IMG/VR virus record: IMGVR_UViG_3300025013_000002
Span: 1 to 64,000 of that record
Strand: one strand, 5' to 3'
Length of the DNA: 64,000 bases
Source: a virus
A model generated the notes under the pieces. The model had not been told where the DNA came from. It saw only the letters and a program-made list of their open reading frames with translations, and did not search any database. This document shows positions 1 to 21,808 of this stretch, one piece after another (the first letter of the stretch is position 1; every line of letters starts with the position of its first letter). Both the position numbers and the translations under genes were made by a program.

Positions 1-206
1 AACGCTACCGTGGAGCGCATGTGGTTGATCAGGCCAAGAGGCTGAAGCCTGCTCTGCGGAGGGTGGTATTTTCCTGTAGATGAACTGGCTACCTGAGTCA
101 GGTACGCGGGCGCCTTCATCAGCGTATAGGCCACGAAATCCTGGATCAGCGGATTCTTGATTTGCTTCAGTTCGGCTTCAACTAATTCGATAATTTCTTC
201 GCTCAA
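1..206 (-). CDS. HD-domain phosphohydrolase, N-terminal part (runs off window edge)
   Basis: Own translation from TTG at 206: MSEEIIELVEAELKQIKNPLIQDFVAYTLMKAPAYLTQVASSSTGKYHPPQSRLQPLGLINHMRSTV. The ASSTGKYHP...GL..H pattern is typical of phage HD hydrolases; the HD dyad would lie outside the window. Confidence 0.6.
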   Translation of the reverse strand, partial: MSEEIIELVEAELKQIKNPLIQDFVAYTLMKAPAYLTQVASSSTGKYHPPQSRLQPLGLINHMRSTVA

Positions 207-424
207 TTCTTTTCTGTCTCCTTCACCTCAGCGATCCCGCTGATGAAATCTCGGTTTAGACAAGTGGTTCGCCCGGAGGGAGTTTCGATGGTCACCCACT
301 CGACCGAAATCCCTTTCAGGATTCCTTCGTGTGGGATCTGGGCGCCGTACTTGTCGATCAATTTTACTGTCTTGCCAAACAAGGCTTCGACTCCGGTTGC
401 CTCTGGCTTCTTTCTAGGTGGCAT
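203..424 (-). CDS. small hypothetical protein, possible Sm/SH3-like beta fold
   Basis: ATG at 424 (MPPRKK...LFGKTVKLI...EGILKGISVEWVTIET); stop overlaps the next start (TTGA). Confidence 0.5.
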   Translation of the reverse strand: MPPRKKPEATGVEALFGKTVKLIDKYGAQIPHEGILKGISVEWVTIETPSGRTTCLNRDFISGIAEVKETEKN

Positions 425-641
425 CCTCGTCCTCGTAGTCATCATCCCCTGCATTCTCGTAGGCTTCGTCCTCGAACTGGCGGATGTAGCCCTCAAGTTT
501 TTCTGCGGCAGTTACGAATGCACTCCGGAGGCGGTGAAATTCGGGGTCCTCAATCTCAGACCAATCGCTGTATTCGCGGAGCGCGTAGTCAAAGCCTTCG
601 TAGTCGATCTTGTAAAACAGGTTGGTAAATTCGTTGCTCAT
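414..641 (-). CDS. acidic hypothetical protein
   Basis: 75-aa ORF tightly packed in the operon, GAGG RBS. Confidence 0.6.
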   Translation of the reverse strand: MSNEFTNLFYKIDYEGFDYALREYSDWSEIEDPEFHRLRSAFVTAAEKLEGYIRQFEDEAYENAGDDDYEDEDAT

Positions 642-768
642 CCTCTTCCTCCTCAGGTTCCCAGCACCAGGCGTCTTCAGGAATCACCTGGTCCGATTTC
701 AGTTCACACTCGCCCCCGCCGTAATCGACGGGGGCTATTCTTGTGTACGGGCAATGCGAGTAGCACAT

Positions 769-1056
769 CTACTTCACGGCCCTCCACTCGATTACTTTGA
801 CCTCGACAGGTTCGACTTCGGTGACCTCAACTTCTTCAGGCCACCACTCGCTGTCGTAATCCCAGTCAGTGAAAGCACTCCCTGACCGGGACTCGACGAG
901 GCTGTAGTGCTTGTCTTCGAACTTGAATACGATTTCCCTGCATTGGTACTTGTAGTCTTGAATCCACTCGCCTTCTTCAACGATCTCGAATCCTTCAGGA
1001 GTATCTTCTTCAGTGATGGCGATCATCAGGTCTTTTGCGAATTTTCTAGTTTTCAT
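769..1056 (-). CDS. hypothetical protein (paralogue triplet, copy 3)
   Basis: MKTRKFAKDLMIAI...PEGFEIVE...IVFKFEDKHY; overlapping start/stop with neighbours. Confidence 0.7.
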   Translation of the reverse strand: MKTRKFAKDLMIAITEEDTPEGFEIVEEGEWIQDYKYQCREIVFKFEDKHYSLVESRSGSAFTDWDYDSEWWPEEVEVTEVEPVEVKVIEWRAVK

Positions 1057-1324
1057 CTCTCAACTCCTTCCACTTGAAATTGCCTTCGTCCCAGTAGACT
1101 TCGTAAGCCGGAACATCCCCTTCCCAGTTTGCCAAAAGCCCTTTCGGTCTCCCACCGCCATTCCAACCAGAGAACTGATAAAACCTGCCTCCTACCCGGA
1201 AGACGACGCTGGTGCCCTTACCGTCGTCCCACGACAACTTCAACTCAAGAAGTTCATACCCCTCAGGAACGATCTGACCCGCGAGCGCGATGATGTCGTC
1301 CTTGGGAAAATATTTAGTTGGCAA
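1046..1324 (-). CDS. hypothetical protein (paralogue triplet, copy 2)
   Basis: MPTKYFPKDDIIAL...PEGYELLE...VVFRVGGRFY. Confidence 0.7.
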   Translation of the reverse strand: MPTKYFPKDDIIALAGQIVPEGYELLELKLSWDDGKGTSVVFRVGGRFYQFSGWNGGGRPKGLLANWEGDVPAYEVYWDEGNFKWKELRDEN

Positions 1325-1613
1325 TGGGTAGTACCTCCCAACCAGGCCTACAGAATTCGTGATGAACCACTTCGTGTGCGCTCATCCCTGCGACCCCAAA
1401 ATCCAGTACAGAGACTTTCTCCCAGCCTTCCACCAGGTCGTACATGAATACGTAGTGCTTGCCCTCGAAACCAAAGACGACTTCTTTGAACTGCATTCTG
1501 CCTGCAGCAGGTGTGATCTTGTGGTGGTTAGCCTCCAAGATCTCATAGCCGGTGGGGGCAGCCCCGTTGATCAGAGAAATCAGCGTTTCCTTGTTGAATT
1601 TTCTAGTTCCCAA
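1314..1613 (-). CDS. hypothetical protein (paralogue triplet, copy 1)
   Basis: MGTRKFNKETLISL...PTGYEILE...VVFGFEGKHY. Confidence 0.7.
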   Translation of the reverse strand: MGTRKFNKETLISLINGAAPTGYEILEANHHKITPAAGRMQFKEVVFGFEGKHYVFMYDLVEGWEKVSVLDFGVAGMSAHEVVHHEFCRPGWEVLPIAN

Positions 1614-1622
1614 TTTTTTCTC

Positions 1623-2561
1623 CTAATACATCTGCAGGAGTCGCTCTAGCGCGATCTCCTCAACGTCGTAGCGGCCCGGAGCCCAGTGAGTCAGAATAGC
1701 GAGCCCTCTCCAGTAAGCGTTCAGGCCTCCGTAGGCGTAGGCATCAACATGAGAAAAGAACGCCCCTAGCATACTGATTTGGGTGATGGTGTCTGACCCG
1801 TGGCGGTAGTAATTCACGCTCTCGCGACGGTGTGAATGACCGTAGACCACTGATTTAGCCGTTTGCTCAGCAGCCCGGTGAATCGCGTATTTCCCGGTAA
1901 CCGGTTGATTCGCGGCATTCTGGGGTGCGTGCGTAAAGAGAACGCCTTCGATCTCGATGTTCTCTCGGTACTCCACCACGGAAGTAACGCCCAACTCAGG
2001 AAGCCCAAGGTCCTTCACAAGGTCTAGGTGCTCTTTCAGTTCAGGCTTGGTTTCGAGGTAACGGTCTAGCCTGGAACAATGGTTGCCTTTTATGAAGACC
2101 ACTTCCGGGCGGTAACCCGCGATCTTCTTGCTGGGCTCCAGCAAAAGTCGAAGTGCCTCCTTCCCCGCTTCCATGTCCTCTTTGTACCTGCGCCCCTCCA
2201 TGACTCCGGATTTGGTCAGGTCCCAGTTACTCAAGGATTCAAGGCTGACCCAATCCCCCAAGGTGATTACTCGATCCGGCCTGCGTTCAGCCATAAGCTG
2301 ACCCGCCTTCTCGAATCGGGTAAGATCCTGGCCCGGACCCACGTGAGCATCGGGGATGACCAAGGAAGTGCTCCAGCCCTTGTCCGACTTCTTCCCCAAG
2401 TACTCCTCTTTCGCAGCGCTCCACCCGCCGAAGACGCGCATGAAGGGGTCCTCGGTAACTCCGAATTCCGCGCGCATTTCTCTTCGAGTGGGCATCTTGT
2501 CGTGCCTCTCTTCGAACTGACCTAGCAATTCGAGGAGCTGTTCTTTCGTGTAACTACTCAA
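1623..2561 (-). CDS. calcineurin-like metallophosphoesterase with N-terminal helical repeat (homing-endonuclease-associated-repeat-like)
   Basis: Motifs DAH, GDW, GNH, THAP, GHSH in the canonical order; N-terminus YTKEQLLELL...PT..EM....FMRVFGGWSAA. Confidence 0.85.
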   Translation of the reverse strand: MSSYTKEQLLELLGQFEERHDKMPTRREMRAEFGVTEDPFMRVFGGWSAAKEEYLGKKSDKGWSTSLVIPDAHVGPGQDLTRFEKAGQLMAERRPDRVITLGDWVSLESLSNWDLTKSGVMEGRRYKEDMEAGKEALRLLLEPSKKIAGYRPEVVFIKGNHCSRLDRYLETKPELKEHLDLVKDLGLPELGVTSVVEYRENIEIEGVLFTHAPQNAANQPVTGKYAIHRAAEQTAKSVVYGHSHRRESVNYYRHGSDTITQISMLGAFFSHVDAYAYGGLNAYWRGLAILTHWAPGRYDVEEIALERLLQMY

Positions 2562-2569
2562 TTTGACTC

Positions 2570-2992
2570 CTATTCAGATGTGAATTCATCTGGGCGAAAT
2601 TCAGAAATAATAAGTTCCGCCCTTGGGTTTTCCTTGTCGATTCCGCCGAACTTGTACTCGATCTGAGGGATGAACGTATAATTGTCGTCCTCCAGGAGTT
2701 TCAGTTCAATCAGCGCGTCGTCTGCGAATTTCTGAACCACCGCCCCGATGTTCGCCAGATCGAACAGCCGCTTCGTCGAGTAGAAAATCGTGTAGGTGAA
2801 TTTGTACGGTGGCTTGCCTAGGTCACCTTCGGCCTTCTCGACTGCCTTAGCTACGATTTCCTTGTACAGGATCTTCAGCGCGTTGCTCTCATGGTGCTGC
2901 CAGTTGCGGTAATTGTTGAGGGTCAAGTAATACTTCGGCCCATCCTTCGTCTTCCTCGGGATGGTCACTGTCAGGGGCAGACTAATCTTCAA
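2570..2992 (-). CDS. RusA-like Holliday junction resolvase
   Basis: RLFDLANIG...KFADDAL...LLEDDN...ENPRAEL matches the RusA D-x-x-N...K...D...DD pattern. Confidence 0.75.
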   Translation of the reverse strand: MKISLPLTVTIPRKTKDGPKYYLTLNNYRNWQHHESNALKILYKEIVAKAVEKAEGDLGKPPYKFTYTIFYSTKRLFDLANIGAVVQKFADDALIELKLLEDDNYTFIPQIEYKFGGIDKENPRAELIISEFRPDEFTSE

Positions 2993-3200
2993 GGTATGCC
3001 TTCAGTTGGTCTGCGATGTCCCCACAAAGGTTGTCGGTGACACTCCACGTGGTTCCTTGCTTGGTGACGCAGTTACCTTTTCCGATTTCAGTGAAGTCGC
3101 CGTAGATACGCTCCAGTTCTTCCCTGCTCTCAATCACGAAGTTCACCATAATCGGCTTGAACTCCGCTTCCTCCCTCGTCACTTCCACTTTCATCTTCAT
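2982..3200 (-). CDS. hypothetical protein
   Basis: ATG at 3200 after AAGGAG (MKMKVEVTREE...). Confidence 0.55.
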   Translation of the reverse strand: MKMKVEVTREEAEFKPIMVNFVIESREELERIYGDFTEIGKGNCVTKQGTTWSVTDNLCGDIADQLKAYLED

Positions 3201-4716
3201 CTCCTTTTCCCGTTTCAACTGGCAAAAATCGCCAGCATCCGTCTTCTCTTGCTTCGATCCGGTGCCCCTTATAATGATAAGGGACCATCTCAAGCATCTC
3301 AGGTTCCCACGACGATTTCCGCCGCTTCTTGGTCATCACGCCCTTAGCTACGATCCAGTTCCCAACTCCGTTGTGCGAAAAATAATACCTCATGCTTTTG
3401 TCGCAGATGGAGCAGATCCCCGCGCCGTGCGACGGAGCATTCGTGCCTCCGCAAAGGGTACATTTTTCAACTCGGGTGTGTTTTCCGTGCAGCCTGTATC
3501 TGCGCCAAGGGGCCTTGTCCCAGAGGATTTTCCTGCCAACGCCAATCTTAGTCCCTCCCACTTTCAAGTAGAGGAATTCCAAGAGTTTGCCCTTCACCGG
3601 CTTGATGTTGTTGAGTAGGGCGTTGTCCCTCCCCGCGAAGCTGAAAGCTACCCGGAAGAGATCCCCGTTGAACCAAACTAAAAACCCTTTGGCGTTCCCA
3701 CCTACGTGCCAGAATCGTTCGACGATTCCCACGGTCACCCTGACCTCGACCACATGAGACTCGCCGGTTCTGGCGGTATCCTGGTCGGTCAGAGTGAGGT
3801 ACTCGCAATCCGAGTGCTCCATGACCTTGACGACTTCGCCCAAAACTTCCTCTTCCTGAAATGCGAGGCCCACATAATTGGGCGTGATCTGCGTGAGTAG
3901 GTTGTTATCCTGAAATTTTCGCAGCTTCTCTACTCGCTCGGGAAACGGGGTTGTGGGGTTGCCGTTGAGGGTCAAGGCAAACTCCTTCAGATTGTCGAAG
4001 TAATCAACTGGGTGAAACACGATCCTTCCTGAGGACACCCGCCCCGCGTAGCCCGTCAGGGTAAATCGTGGAGTGCCGATGTACTGAAGATCAACCGGCA
4101 GAAGTGGTTTCACAGGAACCAATTTTCCTGCATCGCACATAAACGACCTACTTGATCTAGGCTCCCTAGAGACCACCCCTAGCCTCATATCATCAGCCAT
4201 GACAGCGGAGATAGCGACCGGGTAGTTCAACGCAGCGAAGCTTGTCTGGAGGGCCTCAGGTGCCTTATAAATTTCGAAGGTGTTAACCACACCAAGGTCG
4301 AGCGAGGTCTGAATCTCCATGACGGGCAATCCTTTGGTAAAACTTTTTGAAACTAGGGCTAAATAAAATTCCCTGTCGATTTTACAGGTCTTCGCTAGAA
4401 ATCGAATTAACTCCGACTCCCTCGTGCAGGTCACAGCTTTCCGGTTGAAGAACCTGACGACTTCCAGAAAACCCTCAAAGCTCGCTTCGGAGATTTCTAG
4501 TTCCGGGACTGAGTGGTACCTGGATTCGTCGATGGCCTTGAACCGAAAATTCGACATACAGAACCAGCAGGCGAACGTGAGGAGCCATTCGGATTCTTCT
4601 GGGAGCTTCAGGACCCCCGCAGCGAATTGCTTTCTCTTTTCCTTGGGTGACCTGAGTTCTACTAGCGAATTCCTGAAGTTCAAAACTTCTTCGATGTTGG
4701 AAAGTTCGATTTTCAT
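3130..4716 (-). CDS. degenerate ATP-dependent DNA ligase paralogue with C-terminal Cys4 zinc finger
   Basis: Colinear by-eye similarity to the ligase at 17303-18700; KxDG motif replaced by VMADDMR; C-terminal CTLC...CSIC. Confidence 0.6.
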   Translation of the reverse strand: MKIELSNIEEVLNFRNSLVELRSPKEKRKQFAAGVLKLPEESEWLLTFACWFCMSNFRFKAIDESRYHSVPELEISEASFEGFLEVVRFFNRKAVTCTRESELIRFLAKTCKIDREFYLALVSKSFTKGLPVMEIQTSLDLGVVNTFEIYKAPEALQTSFAALNYPVAISAVMADDMRLGVVSREPRSSRSFMCDAGKLVPVKPLLPVDLQYIGTPRFTLTGYAGRVSSGRIVFHPVDYFDNLKEFALTLNGNPTTPFPERVEKLRKFQDNNLLTQITPNYVGLAFQEEEVLGEVVKVMEHSDCEYLTLTDQDTARTGESHVVEVRVTVGIVERFWHVGGNAKGFLVWFNGDLFRVAFSFAGRDNALLNNIKPVKGKLLEFLYLKVGGTKIGVGRKILWDKAPWRRYRLHGKHTRVEKCTLCGGTNAPSHGAGICSICDKSMRYYFSHNGVGNWIVAKGVMTKKRRKSSWEPEMLEMVPYHYKGHRIEAREDGCWRFLPVETGKGDEDESGSDEGGSGVQADYGELRD

Positions 4717-5363
4717 CAGACTCCGATTTTTCCCGTATACCTCTCCATAGGCGAGATCTGCGTTACGTTATCCTTTTTACCATCCTTGTGCTCCTGCGCG
4801 TAATCCAGAAGGTACCGCTGTACCGACTGGTACCAGCCCTTTGCAGTCACTTGATTGAGGTTCATGTGGCCGTGCTTTCCATCTGGCGCAGAACTCCGCA
4901 TATATTCTTTCAGTTCACCAGATGCCCAAGCCCTTGGTAGGTACAACCACCAAGGCTCCAAGGCCACTGCCAACTTATCGGCCATACATAACCTGGAGGG
5001 CTCATCACCGTTTCTTTTAGCTAAGAACCGTGAATGGTTTAAGCAGAAGAAGTACCAACGAGCACCGTCGTAATTACCAGACAAATACCGCAAGAAACGT
5101 AGAGGATTCCAACTCCAGAGATCCTTATGGTGGTAATCAAACAACCAGTGCATAATCTTAGCCCCAGCATAGGGATGAAGTTCTCCTTTAGGACCATCCA
5201 TCTCAGGACAGCCCCAGTAGCCCCAATCATGTACCAGGAACGCCACCCACAGGCGCGGGTCCCACGGGAACCCATAGAGCTTCCACCACGCCAAGGCCAC
5301 AACAAAAGGATGCCACCACCAGAGATGCACTCCGAACAATAAAGATTTAGTTCCTACCTTCAA
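4716..5363 (-). CDS. HD-like metal-binding hypothetical protein
   Basis: H...HDWGY...H...H...ADKL spacing typical of the HD superfamily. Confidence 0.5.
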   Translation of the reverse strand: MKVGTKSLLFGVHLWWWHPFVVALAWWKLYGFPWDPRLWVAFLVHDWGYWGCPEMDGPKGELHPYAGAKIMHWLFDYHHKDLWSWNPLRFLRYLSGNYDGARWYFFCLNHSRFLAKRNGDEPSRLCMADKLAVALEPWWLYLPRAWASGELKEYMRSSAPDGKHGHMNLNQVTAKGWYQSVQRYLLDYAQEHKDGKKDNVTQISPMERYTGKIGV

Positions 5364-5372
5364 ATACTCCTC

Positions 5373-7607
5373 CTATTGCTGAATTGATGTCGTTCCGTCC
5401 TCGTGTTTAGTTGCTCTGATCACGCTGTCGTAGGTCATCGCCAAGGCCAACTCGCTGTGGGCTATGGTGAATAGAGCCTTGTTCTGGCCTCTCAGATGAT
5501 CCAGCACCGCAAAAAGTCCAGCCTTCCCCTCTTCATCCAACGACCCGAAGATTTCATCGAGGCAGAGAACGTTGAAGGAAGAGGAGCCCGTGGCTTCCAA
5601 AATTTCCAACGTAGCGAAGAGGCAGGACATCTTGACTCGCGCCTTCTCGCCCTCCGACCAGTTCGCCCACTTGACCGTCTTGTGGGAATCGGTGACCGTG
5701 AATTGGACCTCGCCGTCTTCATCGAGATAGAATACGCACGCGATTCTGCCCGAGGTGATCATCTCCGAATATTTTCGGATCAGGATGTTGAAACTCCTCA
5801 AGAACCTGTCGATTTTCCTGACTCGGTAGCCTTTCGGCCCGAGGATTCCCAACCAATTCCTGATGTCCTCCAAGGTGCTTTCTGCGTTGGACAACTCATT
5901 TCTTGAGGCGGCTAACCTCAATAAAAGGTCGCGGTTGTTTTCCTCGACTTGGCGGTTGAGTTCCTTCCGGGCTCTTGATAAAGCATTGTGGTCCTTCGCC
6001 TTGGTGACTTCAGTATCAATTTGGGAAACCTCGTTTTTTACTGAAATCAACTGCGAAGCGACTTCGCCCAGCTTCAGGTCAAGCCCAGCCAGAACCAGAG
6101 GATCAGCCTCGACCACAGGACCAACTTCAGCCCTCAACCGGTTCAACTCGTTCTGCTTCTGCTCGAACAGCAGGTGCTCCATCCCGATCCCAACGGCTTC
6201 CTGGAGATTCTCCGAGATTCGCCGTTTGCGATCTGCGAATGTGCTGACATCAAGCTGAGCCTGGTTCCCGTCGATCTTGGTGTCAGGATTGGCTTCGAGC
6301 TTTTCAAGCTCCTGCGTTTTCCTGGTGATTTCCTGCCAAGCCTTTTGAACGGCTCGGTACTTCGAGAGGGAATCGGAGCACTTGTTCAGGATCTCGTAGC
6401 CGGTTTCGATCTGGCTGAAAAGCTCCGCGATTTGTCCTTCGAACTGCGTCGGGTCAACTCCATGACCACAGGTAGGACAGGCGCCAGATTCAGATGATTT
6501 TTGAAGGCTCAGTCGTTCGGTCTCGCGCTGGCTTACGTTCGCCTGGGTCTTCGTCCGGAGATTTTCGATTTTGCTGATCTGCTCCTCAGCGAACTCCAGT
6601 TCAACTTCAGGAGTCTCCAATCCAGCCAGCTCCTCCCTCAAGGGAACCAGCCGGTCAATCTGCGGCTTGGCACTTTGGTACCTAGCCAAGACCCCTTGAG
6701 CCTCTTGCAGCAAAGACTCCGTGGTTCTGAGTTCTTCCTGAAGCTTAGTTGCTCTGCTTTGTGCGTCCTCCTTGGCTAAGGCAGGAACTTGGAAATCCTT
6801 CAGTTCCTTCTCAAGTTCCTGAATCTTGCTCTGGGTTGCTTGGTTCGCCTCGGCTGTTTTCAGCTTCTCCGCAAGTTCCAAGCGGTCCCTGGAAAGTTCC
6901 AATTGCTGCGCTTTCAAACTATCAACTTCAACCCAAAGCAGCTTCAGTTTGGATTCAAGCTCAGCAACCTCGACTTCCTCCAGTTCAGGCTGAGGATGAA
7001 CCACGCCCTGCTCCATCAACTCGATGTTTTTCTGGAGCATCAGAATCTTGCCGTGCTTTCCTGCGAGGCCCTTTTCCTTCTCCTTCATCCGGTCGAATTC
7101 TGCGTCGAGTTCATCCAGGCGATTAACGCGGGAGATGAATTTTTTCCTCTCTCCGTCTGAGGAGGATTCGAGAAGATTCAGGGAGCTTTTAGGGCTCTGG
7201 TAGACGAGGTCCACGAAAGTCGAATAGTCGGTTTCGAGGACCTCTTCGATGAACTTCAGATTGTCCGGGATTCTTTTCAGATGCCGCTTGTGCTTCGCTC
7301 CGTTGACCTCTTCATAAATCTCGATCTCGCCGGTTTTCTTCGAGTTCTTGACGTGCCACTCGGAAGCGCCCTTGGTGAACCAGATTTCAATCTCGTAGGG
7401 CTGGCCCGTGATCTCGTTATTCACGTCAGCGATCTTGGTGCCCTTCGGGTTCTGGTTGAAGAGGCCCTGGATCAACGTCAGGAAAAGGCTCGTCTTGCTG
7501 GCGCCGTTGTTCCCGATGACCGAGTGAATCCCATTCTCGAACCTGAAGTCGAGGTACTTGTAGGCGAAGCAGTCTCTGGCAACGACTCGGGTGAAATTGA
7601 CTACCAC
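5373..7607 (-). CDS. sbcC: SbcC/Rad50-like ATPase (T5 D13-like recombination exonuclease subunit)
   Basis: Walker A GNNGASKTS, Q-loop VYQ, long coiled coil with CPTC zinc hook, signature WSEGEK, Walker B LCLDE, H-loop IAHS. Confidence 0.92.
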   Translation of the reverse strand: MVVNFTRVVARDCFAYKYLDFRFENGIHSVIGNNGASKTSLFLTLIQGLFNQNPKGTKIADVNNEITGQPYEIEIWFTKGASEWHVKNSKKTGEIEIYEEVNGAKHKRHLKRIPDNLKFIEEVLETDYSTFVDLVYQSPKSSLNLLESSSDGERKKFISRVNRLDELDAEFDRMKEKEKGLAGKHGKILMLQKNIELMEQGVVHPQPELEEVEVAELESKLKLLWVEVDSLKAQQLELSRDRLELAEKLKTAEANQATQSKIQELEKELKDFQVPALAKEDAQSRATKLQEELRTTESLLQEAQGVLARYQSAKPQIDRLVPLREELAGLETPEVELEFAEEQISKIENLRTKTQANVSQRETERLSLQKSSESGACPTCGHGVDPTQFEGQIAELFSQIETGYEILNKCSDSLSKYRAVQKAWQEITRKTQELEKLEANPDTKIDGNQAQLDVSTFADRKRRISENLQEAVGIGMEHLLFEQKQNELNRLRAEVGPVVEADPLVLAGLDLKLGEVASQLISVKNEVSQIDTEVTKAKDHNALSRARKELNRQVEENNRDLLLRLAASRNELSNAESTLEDIRNWLGILGPKGYRVRKIDRFLRSFNILIRKYSEMITSGRIACVFYLDEDGEVQFTVTDSHKTVKWANWSEGEKARVKMSCLFATLEILEATGSSSFNVLCLDEIFGSLDEEGKAGLFAVLDHLRGQNKALFTIAHSELALAMTYDSVIRATKHEDGTTSIQQ

Positions 7608-7861
7608 TCCTCTTCCTCCATGCTCCGGCTTGGAGGGTACAATACTTCGTCTTGGTACCTGCCGATGAAGAGGCCGACGAAAAGCGTCTGGAAGGCGAAC
7701 CCTCGGAGCGACGGGAGGAACATGAAGGGGAAAACCATATCATCCAGGTAGCCCATCAGGGAGAACTCAACGTCGATGCCGAAGAGCCTTAAACGGAGTG
7801 AGATCGTTCTGTTGGGCTTGTTGAGTGAGCCGTCGATATCGAATAAATCTTTGAGTTTCAA
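7601..7861 (-). CDS. hypothetical protein
   Basis: 86-aa ORF overlapping both neighbours in the operon. Confidence 0.45.
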   Translation of the reverse strand: MKLKDLFDIDGSLNKPNRTISLRLRLFGIDVEFSLMGYLDDMVFPFMFLPSLRGFAFQTLFVGLFIGRYQDEVLYPPSRSMEEEEW

Positions 7862-8871
7862 GCTGCCTCCTTCCAGACCGTCATCATCCGGTCGATTTTA
7901 TTTTCGTCGTACCCAAGCTCGCCAAGGTACAAAGCCAGTTCCTCGTCGAGCGACCGGTTGGCAATTTCTTCCTGCTCTCCATTTTCCTGAACCAGAACCT
8001 GCAAAGCTTCAGGAACCTTCACCAGCTTGACGTTGGCCTGAGGCGCTGAGATGGTCTTCAACTCAGGAACGGTGCCAGTGACCTCGATCCGGTAGAAGTC
8101 GGTGTCGTTCAGAGCGGGGAATTCTTCATCCGCTCGAATTCGGATCTGAATTAGTGAAGGCAAATTTGTGGCTAGACGCTCGTACTTCGCGGTGCCTTTG
8201 TCAATGGTCAGGAGGAGAACTCCGGTATCGACCGAGGATTGAAACTCCTTGTTGATCGGGTGGTTCGTGTAGACTAGCTTGCCTAGTTCGTACCTGCTGT
8301 GAATGTCCCCTACGACCGCAAGATCGAAAGGCTCCAGCAAATGATCGACATCAATTTCCTCCTTGACGAACTGATTGTAGTTGCAGCGGAAATGCGAGAT
8401 CAGGATGTTTGTGTGCCCTTCTTGAAACTCGAACTGGACTCCTGCGGGTGGAATTTCCTTTGGCAGGTTGCAGTGGTTCATGAAGTGGAGCGAGAAACGG
8501 TCGTCAGGAAAATGAGCACTCCAATCGGTGCTTCTGTAATTAACTTGGATCGTTTTGTCCTTGCCCATGTCTAGGTGCTTGAAGGTATCCTTGCCAGGCC
8601 CAATCGTACAATGATTCCCGGAGACTAAGTAAACTTCGACCCCCGCCTCACGACACATTCTGAAGAAAATTAATGCAAGCTCCTGCTCATCTAGGTCAGG
8701 CTCACATCTCTCAAAAACATCACCTGCGACAATAAGCTCTGCGTGATGGTGAAGGCAGGCTTCAATTAAATAGTCGAAGAGGCAAAAATAGCGTTCGATT
8801 TGCCAGGTTGTAGGAGCCTCTCGCCTGAGCCAGATGTGCCAATCTGCGGTACAGATAAATTTTTTAGGCAA
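7858..8871 (-). CDS. sbcD: SbcD/Mre11-like nuclease (T5 D12-like)
   Basis: ADWH, AGDVF, SGNH, SH, GDIH phosphoesterase motifs; upstream of the SbcC-like gene. Confidence 0.9.
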   Translation of the reverse strand: MPKKFICTADWHIWLRREAPTTWQIERYFCLFDYLIEACLHHHAELIVAGDVFERCEPDLDEQELALIFFRMCREAGVEVYLVSGNHCTIGPGKDTFKHLDMGKDKTIQVNYRSTDWSAHFPDDRFSLHFMNHCNLPKEIPPAGVQFEFQEGHTNILISHFRCNYNQFVKEEIDVDHLLEPFDLAVVGDIHSRYELGKLVYTNHPINKEFQSSVDTGVLLLTIDKGTAKYERLATNLPSLIQIRIRADEEFPALNDTDFYRIEVTGTVPELKTISAPQANVKLVKVPEALQVLVQENGEQEEIANRSLDEELALYLGELGYDENKIDRMMTVWKEAA

Positions 8872-9403
8872 CTAGCGCCTCCTCGCTAAAAGGTTGATGA
8901 ACACTTCTGGCTTTCTTGGCTACAACCTCTGCTTCCGCAATTGTGTCAAATCTTCCGAAGTACATATAAGGGCCTCCTCCTGGCTCCTTGACTCGGACCG
9001 TCCATTTGCCAGATCTAGCACATTGGGACACCCCACGCACCCCTGACTTACTTCTTTTAGTGGCACCTTTTCTGTTCTGTCCATTTTCAGATTTTGTTGC
9101 CAACCTCAAGTTGCTCTTCCTGTTGTCACACGGGTTGTGGTTAATGTGGTCTACGTCGAAGCCTTTTGGTGCGTCTAACAAAAATCTTGACATGACAACA
9201 CGACTACTGGTACCCGACACCTTGCCATACACGACTACATAGCCGCCGCGTACCGTTAAACACCAATGCAGCCCACACTCTTTTAGTCGAGCAACATCTT
9301 CCGTGTCTACCAGAACTACCGCTATATGATTTCGCCCTTTTATCGTTAGTTCCGTAGTTTTGTCATTAATTTCTTCATATTCGTTGGTTACCCTACGACG
9401 CAT
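8864..9403 (-). CDS. free-standing HNH homing endonuclease (HNH_3 + AP2-like domain)
   Basis: VDHINHNPCDNRKSNLRLAT..EN..N followed by SGVRGV...W...YFGRFDTIAEA. Confidence 0.9.
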   Translation of the reverse strand: MRRRVTNEYEEINDKTTELTIKGRNHIAVVLVDTEDVARLKECGLHWCLTVRGGYVVVYGKVSGTSSRVVMSRFLLDAPKGFDVDHINHNPCDNRKSNLRLATKSENGQNRKGATKRSKSGVRGVSQCARSGKWTVRVKEPGGGPYMYFGRFDTIAEAEVVAKKARSVHQPFSEEALVA

Positions 9404-9795
9404 TTCTTGAACTCCATTTCCCTCAAGGGTGTCAGGCTCGAATCGCTAGGCTTGTCGGTGAGGCCGAAGCAGACCAGCTTCACGTCGGTGCTAATAAATC
9501 TACATCCCTTGAACAGGGAATGGCTATTTTCTCGAACCTGATACCCAGGAACCACGTAGCCTTCCGTTCTGGATTTGGGCACGTAAGAGCCAAGGATATC
9601 CCCTTCAATTATCAGCTTGTTATCCACGACCTTCGCGGAGTCCACAAATCCAACATTGAGGTGCTGATTGAAATCCCCAAGAATCGGAATCTCCTTCCCT
9701 TGTATGGCCTCAGCCATCTGGTAGAGAGCTTCGGGCGCGAATCTTTCTTGCCTCAAGTCAACTTCAGTCGAAGCGGCTTCTGCGATGAATCTCAT
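9388..9795 (-). CDS. HK97 prohead-protease-like protein, apparently degenerate
   Basis: VDLRQERFAPEAL...IPIL....VGFV...LIIEG...PGYQV...LVCFGLTDKPSD parallels the S78 protease pattern, but the catalytic Ser/His are not evident. Confidence 0.45.
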   Translation of the reverse strand: MRFIAEAASTEVDLRQERFAPEALYQMAEAIQGKEIPILGDFNQHLNVGFVDSAKVVDNKLIIEGDILGSYVPKSRTEGYVVPGYQVRENSHSLFKGCRFISTDVKLVCFGLTDKPSDSSLTPLREMEFKKCVVG

Positions 9796-10029
9796 TTAGG
9801 CCACCTCGTCTTCCGGGTCCTTGTCGCATCCGAACAAGGTGTCCATCCCGTACTCCTCGTTGGCTTCACAGGCAATGCCGTGGAGGATCAGATCAATCTC
9901 TTCGAGGGCATCGGTGTCGATCTCGTCGAAATTGCGAAGGCCGCAGAGACGATCAAGCACGTAGGCGCGAGCCTCTTTGAGTCGCTCCGGGTTGATTGCT
10001 AGGTGATAAATTTTGAATTCTTCGTTCAT
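9796..10029 (-). CDS. hypothetical protein
   Basis: AAGGAG RBS, 77 aa. Confidence 0.6.
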   Translation of the reverse strand: MNEEFKIYHLAINPERLKEARAYVLDRLCGLRNFDEIDTDALEEIDLILHGIACEANEEYGMDTLFGCDKDPEDEVA

Positions 10030-15953: not shown

Positions 15954-16937
15954 TTAGAACCTCCCTGAGAAGGGCTGGAGCCAGAAGTCAGCTTTTTCTG
16001 CAGCAGCGACTTTTCCACATTCGAGGAGCCATTCCTTGACTTCGTGAACGTCAGGAGAATTAGGGTTCCCGAAATCCTCCAGATTCTCCTTCAGGTACAC
16101 GATCCCCTCGACTCCAAAAATCTCCATCTCGACTTCAGGCGTGTGGTGAAGGTCAGCCAGCTTCAGGTTCCTGTAGGCCGTCTCGAAATTCTCCTTGAGC
16201 CCTTCCTTCACCTTCGCAGGCATCCTCGAAATTTGAAGCGAGTCCAATTGCTTCTCGACTTCCTGCATGGTCCCACATTGGCGAATCATCTTCAGGGCGA
16301 AGGTTTCCCCGAGGCCTTTCACGGTCCAGTAACCATCGGAGGTGTCACCCGACAAAGATTTTACGTGAGCGAACTGCCAAGGCTCGATCTCGTACTGCTC
16401 CTGGAAGGCCTTCAGGTTCAACCAGAGTTTGGGCGGGATCTTCTCGCCTTGGCTCAAGGGCATAATCATGGGCTTTGCGTAGCCCGCTTGTGCCACTCCG
16501 GGACGGAGGAGTTGTAGCATGTCCGCGTCGGTGCTCAGGACCATCACATCGAATTCTTCGAGGTCAACGTGGCGAACCACGAAGCTGATCACGTCGTCAG
16601 CCTCCACCCCTTTGACCGAGAGGCAGGGAATCCCCATTTTCCTCGCGAGGTCAACGCAGTCGGGCATCTCCTCGTTCCTGAATCGAGCGTAGCGAGCGAG
16701 TTCAGCCGCGTCCCATTTTTTCCTGGTTTCCTCTCGGTTCGCCTTGTAGCCTTCGTAGATGCCCAGGCGGTACTTGGATTTCCCGCCCTCGCACGCGAAC
16801 ACAACTTTGTGGACCTTGAACTGCTCGACGATCTTTTTGATGTCGCTGAGGAAGCTCCAGGCTTTGTCCGGGTTCTTGAAATGGTACTGGCTGAAGAAGG
16901 AGTTGGCGAAGTCCACAAGGAGGATTCGTTTTTTCAA
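15954..16937 (-). CDS. 5'-3' exonuclease / flap endonuclease (T5 D15-like)
   Basis: LLVD, YR..IY.GYKANR, GVEADDVI, STDADMLQL, GDTSDG..VKGLGE (H3TH motif). Confidence 0.92.
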   Translation of the reverse strand: MKKRILLVDFANSFFSQYHFKNPDKAWSFLSDIKKIVEQFKVHKVVFACEGGKSKYRLGIYEGYKANREETRKKWDAAELARYARFRNEEMPDCVDLARKMGIPCLSVKGVEADDVISFVVRHVDLEEFDVMVLSTDADMLQLLRPGVAQAGYAKPMIMPLSQGEKIPPKLWLNLKAFQEQYEIEPWQFAHVKSLSGDTSDGYWTVKGLGETFALKMIRQCGTMQEVEKQLDSLQISRMPAKVKEGLKENFETAYRNLKLADLHHTPEVEMEIFGVEGIVYLKENLEDFGNPNSPDVHEVKEWLLECGKVAAAEKADFWLQPFSGRF

Positions 16938-19070: not shown

Positions 19071-21596
19071 TTACGCTGCGTCCTCCATGTCGTCCTCAGA
19101 TTCCTCCGAGTCTTCCTCTTCGCTCTCAGCCAAAGCGACCCACTCAAGATCGAACTCCTTCAGGTCTGCCCAGGTCTTGCCTACCTCAGCGTCAGCCTTC
19201 ATCGGGAAGTCCGCAGTCAATCCCTTCGGCCACCTGCTGAGGTGCCTGACGATGAATTCGTGCGCTTCGGAGATCATTGAATCCGGGACTTCCATCTCAC
19301 ACGAATCGTGGATGACGTTGATGATTTTGAAGGGCAACCCACGCTCGTCGATCTCGGCCCACATGTTGACCAGGCTCTGGAGCATCCCGTCACTGGCTAC
19401 CGACTGGATGATAAAGTTGTTGGCTTGGCGTTCAGCCCTAGCCCGCAGCCCTTCGTCCTCGGAGTCGATGTGAGGAACCCGCCGTTTCCTTCCAGAGACT
19501 GCTACCGCGTAGCCGTGCTCCCTAGCGAACATCACATTTTCCTGAAGCATCTGGCGGATGCCGTAGTGCTTCGCGAAATATTCCGCGAGATTCTTCTGGG
19601 CCTCTTCAACGGAGATCCCAGCGTTCTTCGCAATCAAGGCAGGAGCGGCTCCATACAAAGCGGCGAATCCTAAAGTCTTGGCGATCTGGCGGTAATTGTT
19701 GTACTTCTCCTTGACCTCATGGACTTCGCAGTCGAGCTTGAAAACTTCCCGTGCCGTATTCGAGTGAGGATCGAGCCCGTTCTTGAAGCCCTCGACCATC
19801 GCAGGGTCCTTGCTGATTGCTGCGGTGATCCGCAACTCAGCGTTGGAGAGGTCGGCTACGACCAGAGAAGTTCCCTCTTCTGAGATGAAGCATTTTTTGA
19901 GCTTCTGTGCTTCCTCGGAGTGCATGGCGATGTTCTGCATGTTAGGGGCTACGCAGCTTATACGTCCGGTCTTTGGTGAGGCTACACGGAACGAGCAGTG
20001 AATCCTGCTGTCCACCGAGCGGTTGATGATTGCCAGCACGTAGGTGCTGAGCATCTTCTTTAGCCCCTCCATCTCCTTTATGACCCGCAAGGCACCAACA
20101 TCAGGGAATTGTTCGGCCCAAGCCAGGAAGCTCTCTTTGTCCGTCGAGTACTCGCCCTTCTTCGTCTTTTTTATCTGCGGGAACTTCAGCACGTCCTTGA
20201 AGAGGAACCGCTTGTGGTTCACACTGTTCACGAGGAAAACCAGAGGTTTCTTCAGTTCAGTGATCGCGTTCTTGCGCTTGGCGTTCTCCTTCTCAAGCTG
20301 GACTCGGGACAGAAGAGCAACCGCCGTCTGGATCTCAGGCAACGTCTTGAGTTCCTCACCAAGAGATTCGATCCTTTCCTCAAGCTCGGCTTTGTATCGC
20401 TCAGCTTCGGGAAGGTCCACCTTCCAGCCACACTGCTCGATCCTCGCCAGGGCGTAAGCGTAGGTGCTCACGTCCTTGAAAACCTCAACTTGCTCCTCGA
20501 TCTCCAACTGCTTGTCGAAGTAGTCCGCAAGTTGGATCGAGGCATCCACGTCCATGCAACTATAAGGGAACAGGACTTCCAGCGGGATCAAGTCGTAGGT
20601 GAAGTCGGTTTTCTTGATCTTGTGCTCTTTGCAGTACCTGGACTTGAAAAGCTCCAGCGGGGCATCGTAATCCCCGAAGCCATCCAGAAGAGTGGCCGCG
20701 CAGTACTTCAGCGAGTGAGATTCCCTGTTCTCGTCGCAGAGGAAGCTCGCAATTAAAACGTCGTAGACGTTGTGCTTGCAGAGCTTGGTCTTGTACTTGT
20801 ACGCGAGGTGCTTGAAGTCGAAGTAGATGTTGGCCCCGATCTTCATTCTGGAATCGTCGTCGATCAGGTCGTTGCACCCAGTTACGATTTCGGCCCACTC
20901 TTGCGCGGTCCAGTTCCCGTGGTAATCCGGAGTCGGAATGCAGTAGCCGTAGTTAGCCTTGTGCGAGAACTGAATCGTAAGCACTTTTCCTTGATTAAAC
21001 TGCAGCGCAGAAGTCTCAATGTCCAGTGCGTACCGGAAAACGTTCTCCTTGTAGAAGGCGTAGAAGGCCCTGAACTTTTCGATGGTGTCCACGAGCGTAT
21101 AAAATCTAGGCTCGCGTTCTTCCTCGATCAGTTCAGGGAACTGCATTTCCCTCTTAGCCAACTCCAAGCACGTCTTGATCGTCCCTACGATGTCCGGGTT
21201 GTGCTTCACCATCGAGTAGGGTGGAATCGTCAGGGCCTTCGTCTGGTACTTCTCGCACTGGATGATCCTGCCGTAGAACTTCGAGGCACCCTTCGAACCC
21301 ATGCAAAGCTCGAAGGCTTTGGCTGTAGCGAAGAGCAGGAGGTTCGGAGCGTAGGACCCAATGAACTCGTCTACGTACTCGGCCTTCTCCTTGAAACCTG
21401 CTGCCTTTCCGTCTGCGTAATCCGACAGGCAGATGACCGAAACATCTTCCAACTCGATCCCAACTTCGGTGAGGCCCTTCAACAGATCCTTCAGCCCATA
21501 CTTGTTGATAACCCCGCTGTCGATCCAGTCCTGGTGCTGTGGCTGGTCGTAGATGACCAGTACTTTATTATTTGGTGCTTTTCTTGGTGTGATCAA
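19071..21596 (-). CDS. polA: family A DNA polymerase with N-terminal UDG-like domain and 3'-5' exonuclease
   Basis: Exo motifs DIET, NIYFD, YSCMD; polymerase motifs TGRIS..PNMQN, ADLSNAELR (A), RQIAKTLGFAALYG (B), IHDS (C). Probable TTG start at 21596. Confidence 0.95.
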   Translation of the reverse strand: MITPRKAPNNKVLVIYDQPQHQDWIDSGVINKYGLKDLLKGLTEVGIELEDVSVICLSDYADGKAAGFKEKAEYVDEFIGSYAPNLLLFATAKAFELCMGSKGASKFYGRIIQCEKYQTKALTIPPYSMVKHNPDIVGTIKTCLELAKREMQFPELIEEEREPRFYTLVDTIEKFRAFYAFYKENVFRYALDIETSALQFNQGKVLTIQFSHKANYGYCIPTPDYHGNWTAQEWAEIVTGCNDLIDDDSRMKIGANIYFDFKHLAYKYKTKLCKHNVYDVLIASFLCDENRESHSLKYCAATLLDGFGDYDAPLELFKSRYCKEHKIKKTDFTYDLIPLEVLFPYSCMDVDASIQLADYFDKQLEIEEQVEVFKDVSTYAYALARIEQCGWKVDLPEAERYKAELEERIESLGEELKTLPEIQTAVALLSRVQLEKENAKRKNAITELKKPLVFLVNSVNHKRFLFKDVLKFPQIKKTKKGEYSTDKESFLAWAEQFPDVGALRVIKEMEGLKKMLSTYVLAIINRSVDSRIHCSFRVASPKTGRISCVAPNMQNIAMHSEEAQKLKKCFISEEGTSLVVADLSNAELRITAAISKDPAMVEGFKNGLDPHSNTAREVFKLDCEVHEVKEKYNNYRQIAKTLGFAALYGAAPALIAKNAGISVEEAQKNLAEYFAKHYGIRQMLQENVMFAREHGYAVAVSGRKRRVPHIDSEDEGLRARAERQANNFIIQSVASDGMLQSLVNMWAEIDERGLPFKIINVIHDSCEMEVPDSMISEAHEFIVRHLSRWPKGLTADFPMKADAEVGKTWADLKEFDLEWVALAESEEEDSEESEDDMEDAA

Positions 21597-21808
21597 ACCT
21601 CGCCATCCTCCCAGCAACTTGCGTGAACCAACTCTTTCCGACTACCAACCCGAAACCTAACCGCCACTTTCCCTGAAATAACTTCCCCTGACTTGCTTCG
21701 ATTCGAGCGACCGCCTGTGACGACCACGAGTGCCCTCACCACGGCTTTGTCCTGCTCCTTGAACGGCTGGTTACAAACCGCGCAGATGTTATGAAATCCT
21801 CCTGCCAT
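21593..21808 (-). CDS. small zinc-binding protein
   Basis: CAVC...HASC; GGAGG RBS. Confidence 0.6.
   Translation of the reverse strand: MAGGFHNICAVCNQPFKEQDKAVVRALVVVTGGRSNRSKSGEVISGKVAVRFRVGSRKELVHASCWEDGEV

Follow-up and report, generated by a model that had tools for sequence, protein, structure and literature searches.

The closest described relatives of the protein considered here are true DNA ligases: the T4 enzyme (gp30; PDB entries 6dt1 and 5wfy), a Rhizobium phage ligase (9fzx) and the ligase of Prochlorococcus marinus (6rar and 6rce). The protein, P0001, has 528 amino acids and shares with them the order and fold of three domains, a helical DNA-binding domain (DBD), a nucleotidyltransferase (NTase) domain and an OB domain. 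Its gene lies in a window of 64,000 nucleotides, the first 64 kb of the 82,561-base IMG/VR virus record IMGVR_UViG_3300025013_000002, which also encodes an intact ATP-dependent DNA ligase, P0002. Like the true ligases, the P0001 family keeps the glycine of motif III and the arginine of the PLxxR helix. Unlike them, it lacks the motif I lysine and the KxDG signature, the aspartate and glutamate of motif III, and any conserved lysine around motifs IV and V; it carries in addition a cysteine-rich basic domain of ~100 residues and an acidic tail, and it has no Pfam ligase match at E <= 1. We refer to it as a pseudo-ligase.

Snurportin-1 is not an enzyme and uses a nucleotidyltransferase-type fold for binding. 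Its m3G-cap-binding domain (1xk5) matches residues 151–470 of the predicted P0001 model with Z 8.9 and a root-mean-square deviation (rmsd) of 4.3–4.4 for 166–169 of 204 residues; in contrast to the pseudo-ligase, it belongs to a eukaryotic nuclear import adaptor that binds RNA caps, and it lacks a DBD, a ligase-type OB arrangement and a zinc domain. A precedent for a ligase scaffold with a noncatalytic part in repair is eukaryotic DNA ligase IV, to which the consulted excerpts of four reports assign a structural role in end joining (PMC9638927, PMC3549972, PMC11754673, PMC3694833). In the cases described there, an active enzyme that works with Ku and XRCC4 was engineered or carried point mutations, whereas the pseudo-ligases are a natural, ancient and separately encoded phage family with no sign of these partners. 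Accessories of the Mre11–Rad50/SbcCD nuclease offer a further comparison: the eukaryotic Nbs1 and Xrs2, and the N15 protein TelN as an inhibitor (PMC12624138), are encoded with the nuclease or act on it, and the pseudo-ligase gene is translationally coupled to sbcC in five loci. This likeness comes from gene linkage, and P0001 has no relation to Nbs1/Xrs2 or TelN in sequence or fold.

A preliminary description of the window, made by eye from the sequence, had proposed that the gene encodes a ligase clamp exapted as a noncatalytic nick- or DNA-binding factor, for which no described equivalent was known. A literature search, limited to the partial texts that it returned, likewise gave no natural, conserved and catalytically dead family of DNA or polynucleotide ligases (one query produced only the "pseudoligases" among ubiquitin ligases), and scans of Pfam, PHROGs and NCBIfam were empty. 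Here, we find that P0001 is a pseudoenzyme and put a probability of roughly 55% on the fuller reading that it is a ligase-derived, noncatalytic DNA-binding accessory of phage recombination and repair.

Results

Homology to the Ligase of the Same Phage

The two ligase-type proteins differ sharply in how they are recognized. P0002 matches PF01068 (1e-15), PF14743 (2.2e-09), PF04675 (7.1e-08) and phrog_114 (4.6e-96) and contains the motifs KLDG, FVLDGE, EGLIVK and LKVK, in agreement with its earlier designation as an intact ligase. P0001 has no match in Pfam (E <= 1), PHROGs (E <= 0.1) or NCBIfam (E <= 0.1), its sequence matches in the PDB are zinc ribbon-like noise (E 0.5–10), and tblastn against 50,697 phage records returned none. 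Relatives were found in large protein collections: 17 homologues with 34–95% identity in a collection of 5.8 billion proteins, and 62 matches in a library of 1.84 billion representatives, 51 of them with E <= 1e-30. The eight weakest library matches (E 5.8e-07 to 6.6e-04) cover short stretches only, mostly the cysteine region. We aligned P0001 with 49 near-full-length relatives (alignment A3, 50 rows), leaving out fragments (P0017, P0158, P0160, P0167, P0175, P0177–P0184) and weak matches (P0185–P0192); conservation among these 50 representatives reaches down to 22–25% identity. From the 120 homologues listed for P0002, 33 were taken to represent the true ligases (alignment A2).

Compared directly by BLASTP, P0001 and P0002 give a weak, marginal match (E 0.022; residues 98–187 against 82–176), which spans a stretch already singled out in the preliminary description (..NYPVAISAV.. 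over ..KYPVLVEEKLDG..). Profile–profile comparison with hhalign was far more sensitive to the relation: the 17-row family alignment matched A2 with Prob 88.7 and E 2.5e-06 over 353 columns, and the 50-row A3 with Prob 97.3 and E 2.1e-11 over 348 columns, placing query residues 10–386 on ligase residues 2–440. As controls, the 50-row profile was compared with alignments of SbcD (Prob 0.1, E 0.52) and SbcC (Prob 0.3, E 0.19). Cross-searches between the pseudo-ligase and ligase families with hmmsearch, performed in small sets, gave E values of 1e-05 to 1.5e-07. The colinearity of P0001 with the intact ligase, first perceived by eye, is thus above chance. Of the four paired segments on which it had been based, three are paired in the same way by hhalign: KGLPVMEIQ.. 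with KAGIDESTI.., LNYPVAIS.. with LKYPVLVEEKLDG.. and TPFPERVEKL with APLSDRKLEL. FHPVDYF pairs instead with LPVETF, some residues downstream of FFCWDLL; EYLTLTD is set against EGLIVKE with the 17-row profile, but with the 50-row profile it is VGIVE that pairs with EGLIV. Judged from these profile comparisons, the P0001 family is homologous to the phage's own ligase family.

Loss of the Catalytic Residues

The invariant ligase positions of A2 were mapped onto A3 through the hhalign alignment. The motif I lysine, K162, present in all 33 ligases, falls on V172 of P0001, in a column occupied by V (18), I (14), L (12), M (2), A (2), F (1) and C (1) and by lysine in none of the 50 sequences. The KxDG pattern occurs in the NTase region of 31 of the 33 ligases and of no family member, 41 of the 50 members have no lysine anywhere in columns 168–177, and the motif I lysine is absent also from four further copies encoded in related loci. 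Ligase residues D164, G165 and R167 correspond to variable columns of the pseudo-ligase family. In motif III, the position of D209 is taken by V (18), A (10), L (6) and others, and that of E211 by Y (21), F (13), L (8) and others; the glycine between them is retained in 48 of the 50. The loss of the adenylated lysine, first seen in P0001, is therefore a property of the whole family. The accompanying claim that the catalytic residues of motifs III–V are gone stands for motif III, where the acidic residues have become hydrophobic; in motifs IV and V, individual residues cannot be matched, because the 17-row and 50-row profiles align this region differently.

To assess the remaining basic residues, we listed every column with at least 40% lysine or at least 70% lysine plus arginine. 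Between residues 151 and 328 there are only three, columns 184 (R in 23 and K in 22 sequences), 198 (K in 20 of 50) and R261, and no lysine is conserved anywhere in this interval among the 50 sequences. Column 184 alternates between arginine and lysine, which a nucleophile could not tolerate, and the counterpart of R261 in the ligases is an arginine that is also nearly invariant. Within columns 300–331, lysine reaches at most 13 of 50 (column 319). As far as the alignment can tell, the NTase domain thus offers no conserved lysine in a spatially equivalent position that might support self-adenylation.

These losses establish P0001 as a pseudoenzyme. It fails the defining chemical features of the ligase family, so we do not classify it among the DNA ligases despite its ligase scaffold; the P0001 family is a new family-level pseudoenzyme variant in the covalent nucleotidyltransferase superfamily.

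Predicted Structure

The AlphaFold2 model, built with the 17-row alignment, has a mean predicted local distance difference test score (pLDDT) of 85.2 and a predicted template modeling score (pTM) of 0.60, and pLDDT falls below 50 only in the last 26 residues. A Foldseek search of the PDB ranked T4 DNA ligase bound to DNA (6dt1) first (E 1.9e-11), followed by the Rhizobium phage ligase, human ligase III and the Prochlorococcus ligase. There were 74 matches with E <= 0.001; of the 49 that were listed, 47 belong to DNA ligases or to repair complexes that contain one, and two to the capping enzyme PCE1. A scan of 48,161 representative chains, independent of Foldseek, again placed ligases first (Z 10.9–10.2), and the matches in BFVD are viral DNA ligases (best E 4.9e-11). 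No enzyme families other than ligases and capping enzymes appeared among the structure-search matches of the model.

Whole-chain TM scores are low (0.2–0.3) because the three domains are posed differently, and the likeness is clearest domain by domain. Residues 10–144 superpose on the T4 ligase DBD (5wfy) with Z 10.6 and rmsd 3.4 for 127 of 132 residues. Residues 153–324 match the ligase of African swine fever virus (6iml; Z 9.5, rmsd 4.3, 151 aligned), and the NTase domain matches LigIIIa (10ye; Z 9.3, rmsd 4.9, 158 aligned). The NTase and OB domains together (residues 151–401) match Chlorella virus ligase (1p8l; Z 9.4, rmsd 6.2, 220/276), and residues 324–403 alone resemble generic OB folds (Z 6–6.8 in the 48,161-chain scan). 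The DBD–NTase–OB architecture expected in the preliminary description is thus what the prediction returned, with domain Z scores of 9.4–10.9, and nothing in the model speaks for a structure unlike a ligase. The predicted structure supports the view that P0001 is a ligase-derived protein with this architecture. Net charge differs between the parts, being –1 in the DBD, –6 in the NTase domain, +7 in the OB domain, +10 in the C-terminal domain and –7 in the last 26 residues.

The C-Terminal Domain

Residues 401–502 have no counterpart in the ligases aligned. The domain contains a zinc ribbon-like pair of CxxC motifs whose cysteines are strongly conserved (C419 in 50, C422 in 49, C435 in 50 and C438 in 38 of the 50 sequences), C438 being replaced by threonine or serine in the 12 most divergent members. 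A histidine at column 429 (36/50) may be a zinc ligand, making a Cys3His variant of the predicted site conceivable. The CTLC...CSIC motif reported as a gain of P0001 is accordingly a family trait, and the basic patch reported with it is conserved in part: K464 is lysine in 26 and arginine in 15 sequences (41/50 together), and R465 is conserved in 49.

In the full-length model, the domain has a pLDDT of 84–92. Its profile matches to the uS14 and bL32 zinc ribbons are weak (E 0.5–1.2). Folded alone with a five-row alignment from DNA references, it reached a pLDDT of 53, too poor for the isolated model to be searched. A query of the ESM Atlas with residues 398–505 gave no usable feature match and a structure TM of at most 0.36, and the structure searches with the whole model barely cover residues beyond ~420.

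Selection on the Pseudo-Ligase Gene

Ratios of nonsynonymous to synonymous divergence (dN/dS), computed by the Nei–Gojobori method, are 0.120, 0.122 and 0.133 between the window gene and three relatives of 95, 93 and 91% protein identity, and 0.106 for one further pair. They are lowest in the OB domain (0–0.08) and close to neutral in the acidic tail in two of the pairs. The family has conserved motifs of its own, GFxVWFNG..F.F.G..NALL in the OB domain and EKCxxCG...GxCxxC in the tail region, and the reading frame is intact in every copy seen, including P0001 itself, whose length, start, stop and boundaries are exactly those first described. On these estimates, purifying selection maintains the gene and acts most strongly on the OB domain; the consistent loss of the motif I lysine under purifying selection, for which the preliminary description had suggested looking among homologues, is found (no lysine in 50 sequences, dN/dS 0.11–0.13).

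Genomic Context

On the minus strand of the window, a family A polymerase is followed by the intact ligase, a flap endonuclease, several genes, SbcD-like and SbcC-like genes, a 215-aa gene and the pseudo-ligase; beyond it come a small overlapping open reading frame (ORF), a RusA-like resolvase and an HNH-repeat/metallophosphoesterase protein (Table 1). The stop codon of the 215-aa gene shares one base with the pseudo-ligase ATG (TGATG). Its product has no Pfam, PHROGs or NCBIfam match, and by eye it contains an HD-like stretch, VHDWGYWG. This gene is absent from five related loci with 91–95% identity (L001, L002, L003, L011 and L014), in all of which the end of sbcC and the beginning of the pseudo-ligase gene share the overlap ATGA. 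Within L001/L011 and within L002/L003/L014 the copies are near-identical, so these loci are not five independent lineages.

Two more distant copies allow the arrangement to be compared. L004 belongs to a complete genome of 113 kb that has terminal repeats; it encodes a copy 32% identical to P0001 in the order polymerase, flap endonuclease, SbcD-like, SbcC-like, pseudo-ligase, a 95-aa gene and a RuvC-like resolvase. The record G005, found with a back-translated motif pattern, has a copy 45% identical to the family member P0013, itself 42% identical to P0001, and its order is polymerase, ligase, flap endonuclease, SbcD-like, SbcC-like, a 143-aa gene, pseudo-ligase and a RuvC-like resolvase. The 143-aa gene is unrelated to the 215-aa gene and occupies the same slot, which therefore looks like a variable insertion point. 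Common to the window clade, L004 and G005 is the order sbcD, sbcC, zero or one variable small gene, pseudo-ligase, zero or one small gene and a Holliday-junction resolvase. The resolvase is RusA-like in the window clade and RuvC-like in L004 and G005, so the role at this position has been kept while the gene family was exchanged; as read from the family matches, it is a case of nonorthologous replacement at a conserved position.

A further locus, L015 (positions 1–8426, JGI contig Ga0076010_125), was rejected as context and is probably not a true fusion. Its low-GC part (0.27–0.42) holds sugar-nucleotide and membrane glycosyltransferase-like genes, near position 7050 the GC content jumps from ~0.29 to 0.46, and the reading frame of a membrane protein continues into the pseudo-ligase copy at about its residue 45; the jump and the in-frame junction mark it as a probably chimeric assembly.

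An intact ligase (PF01068 above the cutoff) is encoded in the window and in all four related records that are at least 56% complete (G001, G002, G003 and G005).

Table 1. Coordinates of the pseudo-ligase gene, its parts and neighboring genes, in the window unless another locus is named
Feature	Position	Strand	Basis or remark
Pseudo-ligase gene (P0001, 528 aa)	3130..4716	-	ATG at 4716, stop 3130-3132
Helical DNA-binding domain, T4-ligase type, residues 1-150	4267..4716	-	VIA-align, predicted model
Nucleotidyltransferase fold without catalytic residues, residues 151-325	3742..4266	-	VIA-align, predicted model
Degenerate motif I, residues 165-178 (YPVAISAVMADDMR), V172 at the adenylated-Lys position of KxDG	4183..4224	-	hhalign, BLASTP
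OB domain, residues 326-400, most constrained part, GFxVWFNG...FSFxGxxNALL	3517..3741	-	model, dN/dS
Family-specific basic C-terminal domain, residues 401-502, CxxC-x12-CxxC zinc ribbon-like site	3211..3516	-	alignment, model
Codons of C419, C422, C435, C438 (putative Zn ligands)	3403..3462	-	conservation in 50-row alignment
Acidic, disordered, poorly conserved tail, residues 503-528 and stop	3130..3210	-	pLDDT < 50; alignment variable
Intact ATP-dependent DNA ligase gene (P0002), catalytic relative of P0001	17303..18700	-	Pfam, PHROGs matches
Family A polymerase gene	19071-21617	-	
Flap endonuclease gene	15954-16937	-	
SbcD/Mre11-like gene	7858..8871	-	phrog_100 2.6e-15; PF00149
SbcC/Rad50-like gene, upstream of pseudo-ligase	5373..7607	-	phrog_77 4.9e-69
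215-aa gene between sbcC stop and pseudo-ligase start	4716-5363	-	own GAGGAG site
RusA-like Holliday-junction resolvase gene, downstream of pseudo-ligase	2570..2992	-	phrog_1682 2.6e-30
RuvC-like resolvase gene of L004	12008-12541	+	phrog_159 4.6e-11
RuvC-like resolvase gene of L054 (G005)	1086-1679	-	phrog_159 2.2e-11

Several further features surround the pseudo-ligase. A 103-aa ORF (2982–3293, minus strand) overlaps the last ~160 bases of the gene in another frame; it has 61–68% identity in L001, L011 and L013, whereas in L002, L003 and L014 the match is limited to the first 25 residues. The ORF matches no family, and translation may really begin at an internal methionine. The 95-aa gene of L004 (11721–12008, plus strand), between the pseudo-ligase and the RuvC-like resolvase, matches phrog_986, "RNA-binding protein" (7e-29). 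At the end of the module, the window (1623–2561, minus strand) and L054 of G005 (3–1064, minus strand) encode a protein combining HNH_repeat (PF18780, homing endonuclease-associated) with a calcineurin-like metallophosphoesterase. A promoter and terminator scan of positions 1–10000 gave numbers not above those in shuffled sequences (3 vs. 4.7 and 15 vs. 10.4).

CheckV estimates the completeness of the record at 73%. The same DNA is present in groundwater metagenome runs, a possible source, and in a single sediment metagenome from a different study (0.96 of sampled words). By megablast, no close cultured relative was found among 50,697 phage records, and the family A polymerase is ~26–28% identical to those of T5-like phages. 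Site-specific nicks are carried by T5-type phages; this played no part in our assessment.

Discussion

The structural half of the exapted-clamp proposal is borne out by the ligase fold, the absence of the adenylation lysine and of the motif III acids, the purifying selection, the presence of an intact ligase alongside and the extra cysteine-rich C-terminal domain. A nick- or DNA-binding role is what we infer from these features. P0001 descends from a T4-type ATP-dependent DNA ligase and has kept its three DNA-wrapping domains. In the mechanism that we favor, it would be unable to self-adenylate, and with no enzyme–AMP formed there would be no sealing of DNA. It may still bind DNA through the positively charged OB (+7) and zinc (+10) domains, perhaps at nicks, ends or branch points, and so act as a structural accessory of the recombination and repair module, perhaps by marking a DNA lesion, or holding on to it, for SbcCD, for the resolvase or for the true ligase. 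SbcCD is reported, in the consulted part of one source, to cut beside protein blocks (PMC6265447); a lesion-bound dead clamp could then direct or restrain it, a step that is speculation on our side. Among the roles suggested in the preliminary description, gene context points to recombination and repair, and nothing was found that speaks specifically for a transcription factor or an antidefense decoy.

Several points weigh against this reading of P0001 as a noncatalytic accessory. Its function is deduced from fold, charge and gene order. Positions inherited from the ligases are still conserved (G222 in 48, R261 in 48 and D238 in 46 of the 50 sequences), so the old pocket has not been free to drift, and the loss of motifs IV and V is argued, at the level of the alignment, only from the lack of a conserved lysine in columns 300–331. 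The searches returned no fold for the C-terminal domain. The gene context comes from four lineages only, the window clade, L004, G005 and the uninformative L015, and in the window itself the 215-aa gene separates sbcC from the pseudo-ligase. Finally, no ligase was found in the related record G004, which is 31% complete.

A sharper version of the proposal, to which we give limited credence and which we regard as possible though improbable, makes P0001 a dedicated third component of the phage Mre11–Rad50 machine. It would clamp nicks, ends or resolved junctions without sealing them, its zinc domain making a further contact to DNA or protein. Bound there as a "protein block" or landing pad, it would determine the sites of SbcCD cutting or select the breaks that go on to the resolvase and the true ligase. 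Complex prediction with SbcD, the SbcC head halves (1–180 and 575–744) and P0001 residues 326–505 scored 0.34, 0.00 and 0.00; control complexes were not folded, and these scores are evidence neither way. If true, such a clamp would be a prokaryotic-virus counterpart, built from a ligase, of the eukaryotic subunits that recognize lesions for Mre11–Rad50.

Two explanations place P0001 elsewhere, and we think each of them unlikely. It could regulate the phage's active ligase or serve as a scaffold for it: as in many pairs of a pseudoenzyme and its enzyme paralogue, the dead protein would bind the live one, or the same site on DNA, and so adjust or direct sealing, for example by handing over nicks left by the resolvase. 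The detectable homology of the two families and the recurrence of a T4-type ligase in the window and in the four more complete records fit this idea; the co-occurrence is only a weak argument, since a ligase may be present anyway in phages that have this replication module. In the window, moreover, ~12.6 kb lie between the two genes, and neither G003 nor G005 has them side by side. Alternatively, P0001 could protect the phage, capping its nicks or ends against nucleases, such as SbcCD of host or phage or restriction-like systems, or serving as a decoy for a host factor that recognizes ligases or nicked DNA. A nick would be shielded by a clamp that binds it and cannot ligate it, there are phage proteins that hold back Mre11–Rad50 at DNA ends, TelN of N15 being the example in the consulted part of the source (PMC12624138), and the acidic tail and the neighboring variable small genes resemble accessory regions. 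However, the gene sits in a conserved replication and recombination core and not among early accessory genes, the family is conserved down to the low identities seen across its 50 representatives, and no link to a defense system was found, PADLOC not having been searched.

Still less probable, in our judgment, is that P0001 remains an enzyme, with a relocated nucleophile or a different chemistry in a remodeled pocket (D238, D311 and R261) or in the zinc domain. Several positions of the former active-site sheet are 92–96% conserved, D311 (46/50) adding to the three residues counted above, and catalytic residues have migrated in some pseudoenzymes, according to the consulted part of PMC10211241. 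D238 and R261 look structural, however, because the aligned ligase positions are also conserved; moreover, the best candidates for a new lysine within residues 151–328 are the nonconserved columns 184 and 198, and the only enzyme families among the structure matches are ligases and capping enzymes. As for a decaying, functionless duplicate of the ligase gene, the loss of the catalytic motifs is all that suggests it, and we reject it with near certainty in view of the library spread (51 representatives at E <= 1e-30), the low dN/dS, the intact frames, the family's own motifs and the added domain.

Polynucleotide ligases are among the best-studied enzymes, yet Pfam, PHROGs and NCBIfam contain no model for the P0001 family. 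The present analysis adds residue counts across the family, negative controls, selection figures for each domain and a downstream resolvase that is conserved in role and not in family. At least 51 metagenomic protein clusters now called "hypothetical" also gain a name from it, and a hypothesis that can be tested. If P0001 binds lesions without sealing them, a clamp-like enzyme scaffold would have been reused as a sensor or adaptor. It would then be a new accessory for the SbcCD and junction-resolution pathways of bacterial viruses, and possibly a ready-made reagent for binding nicks or ends.

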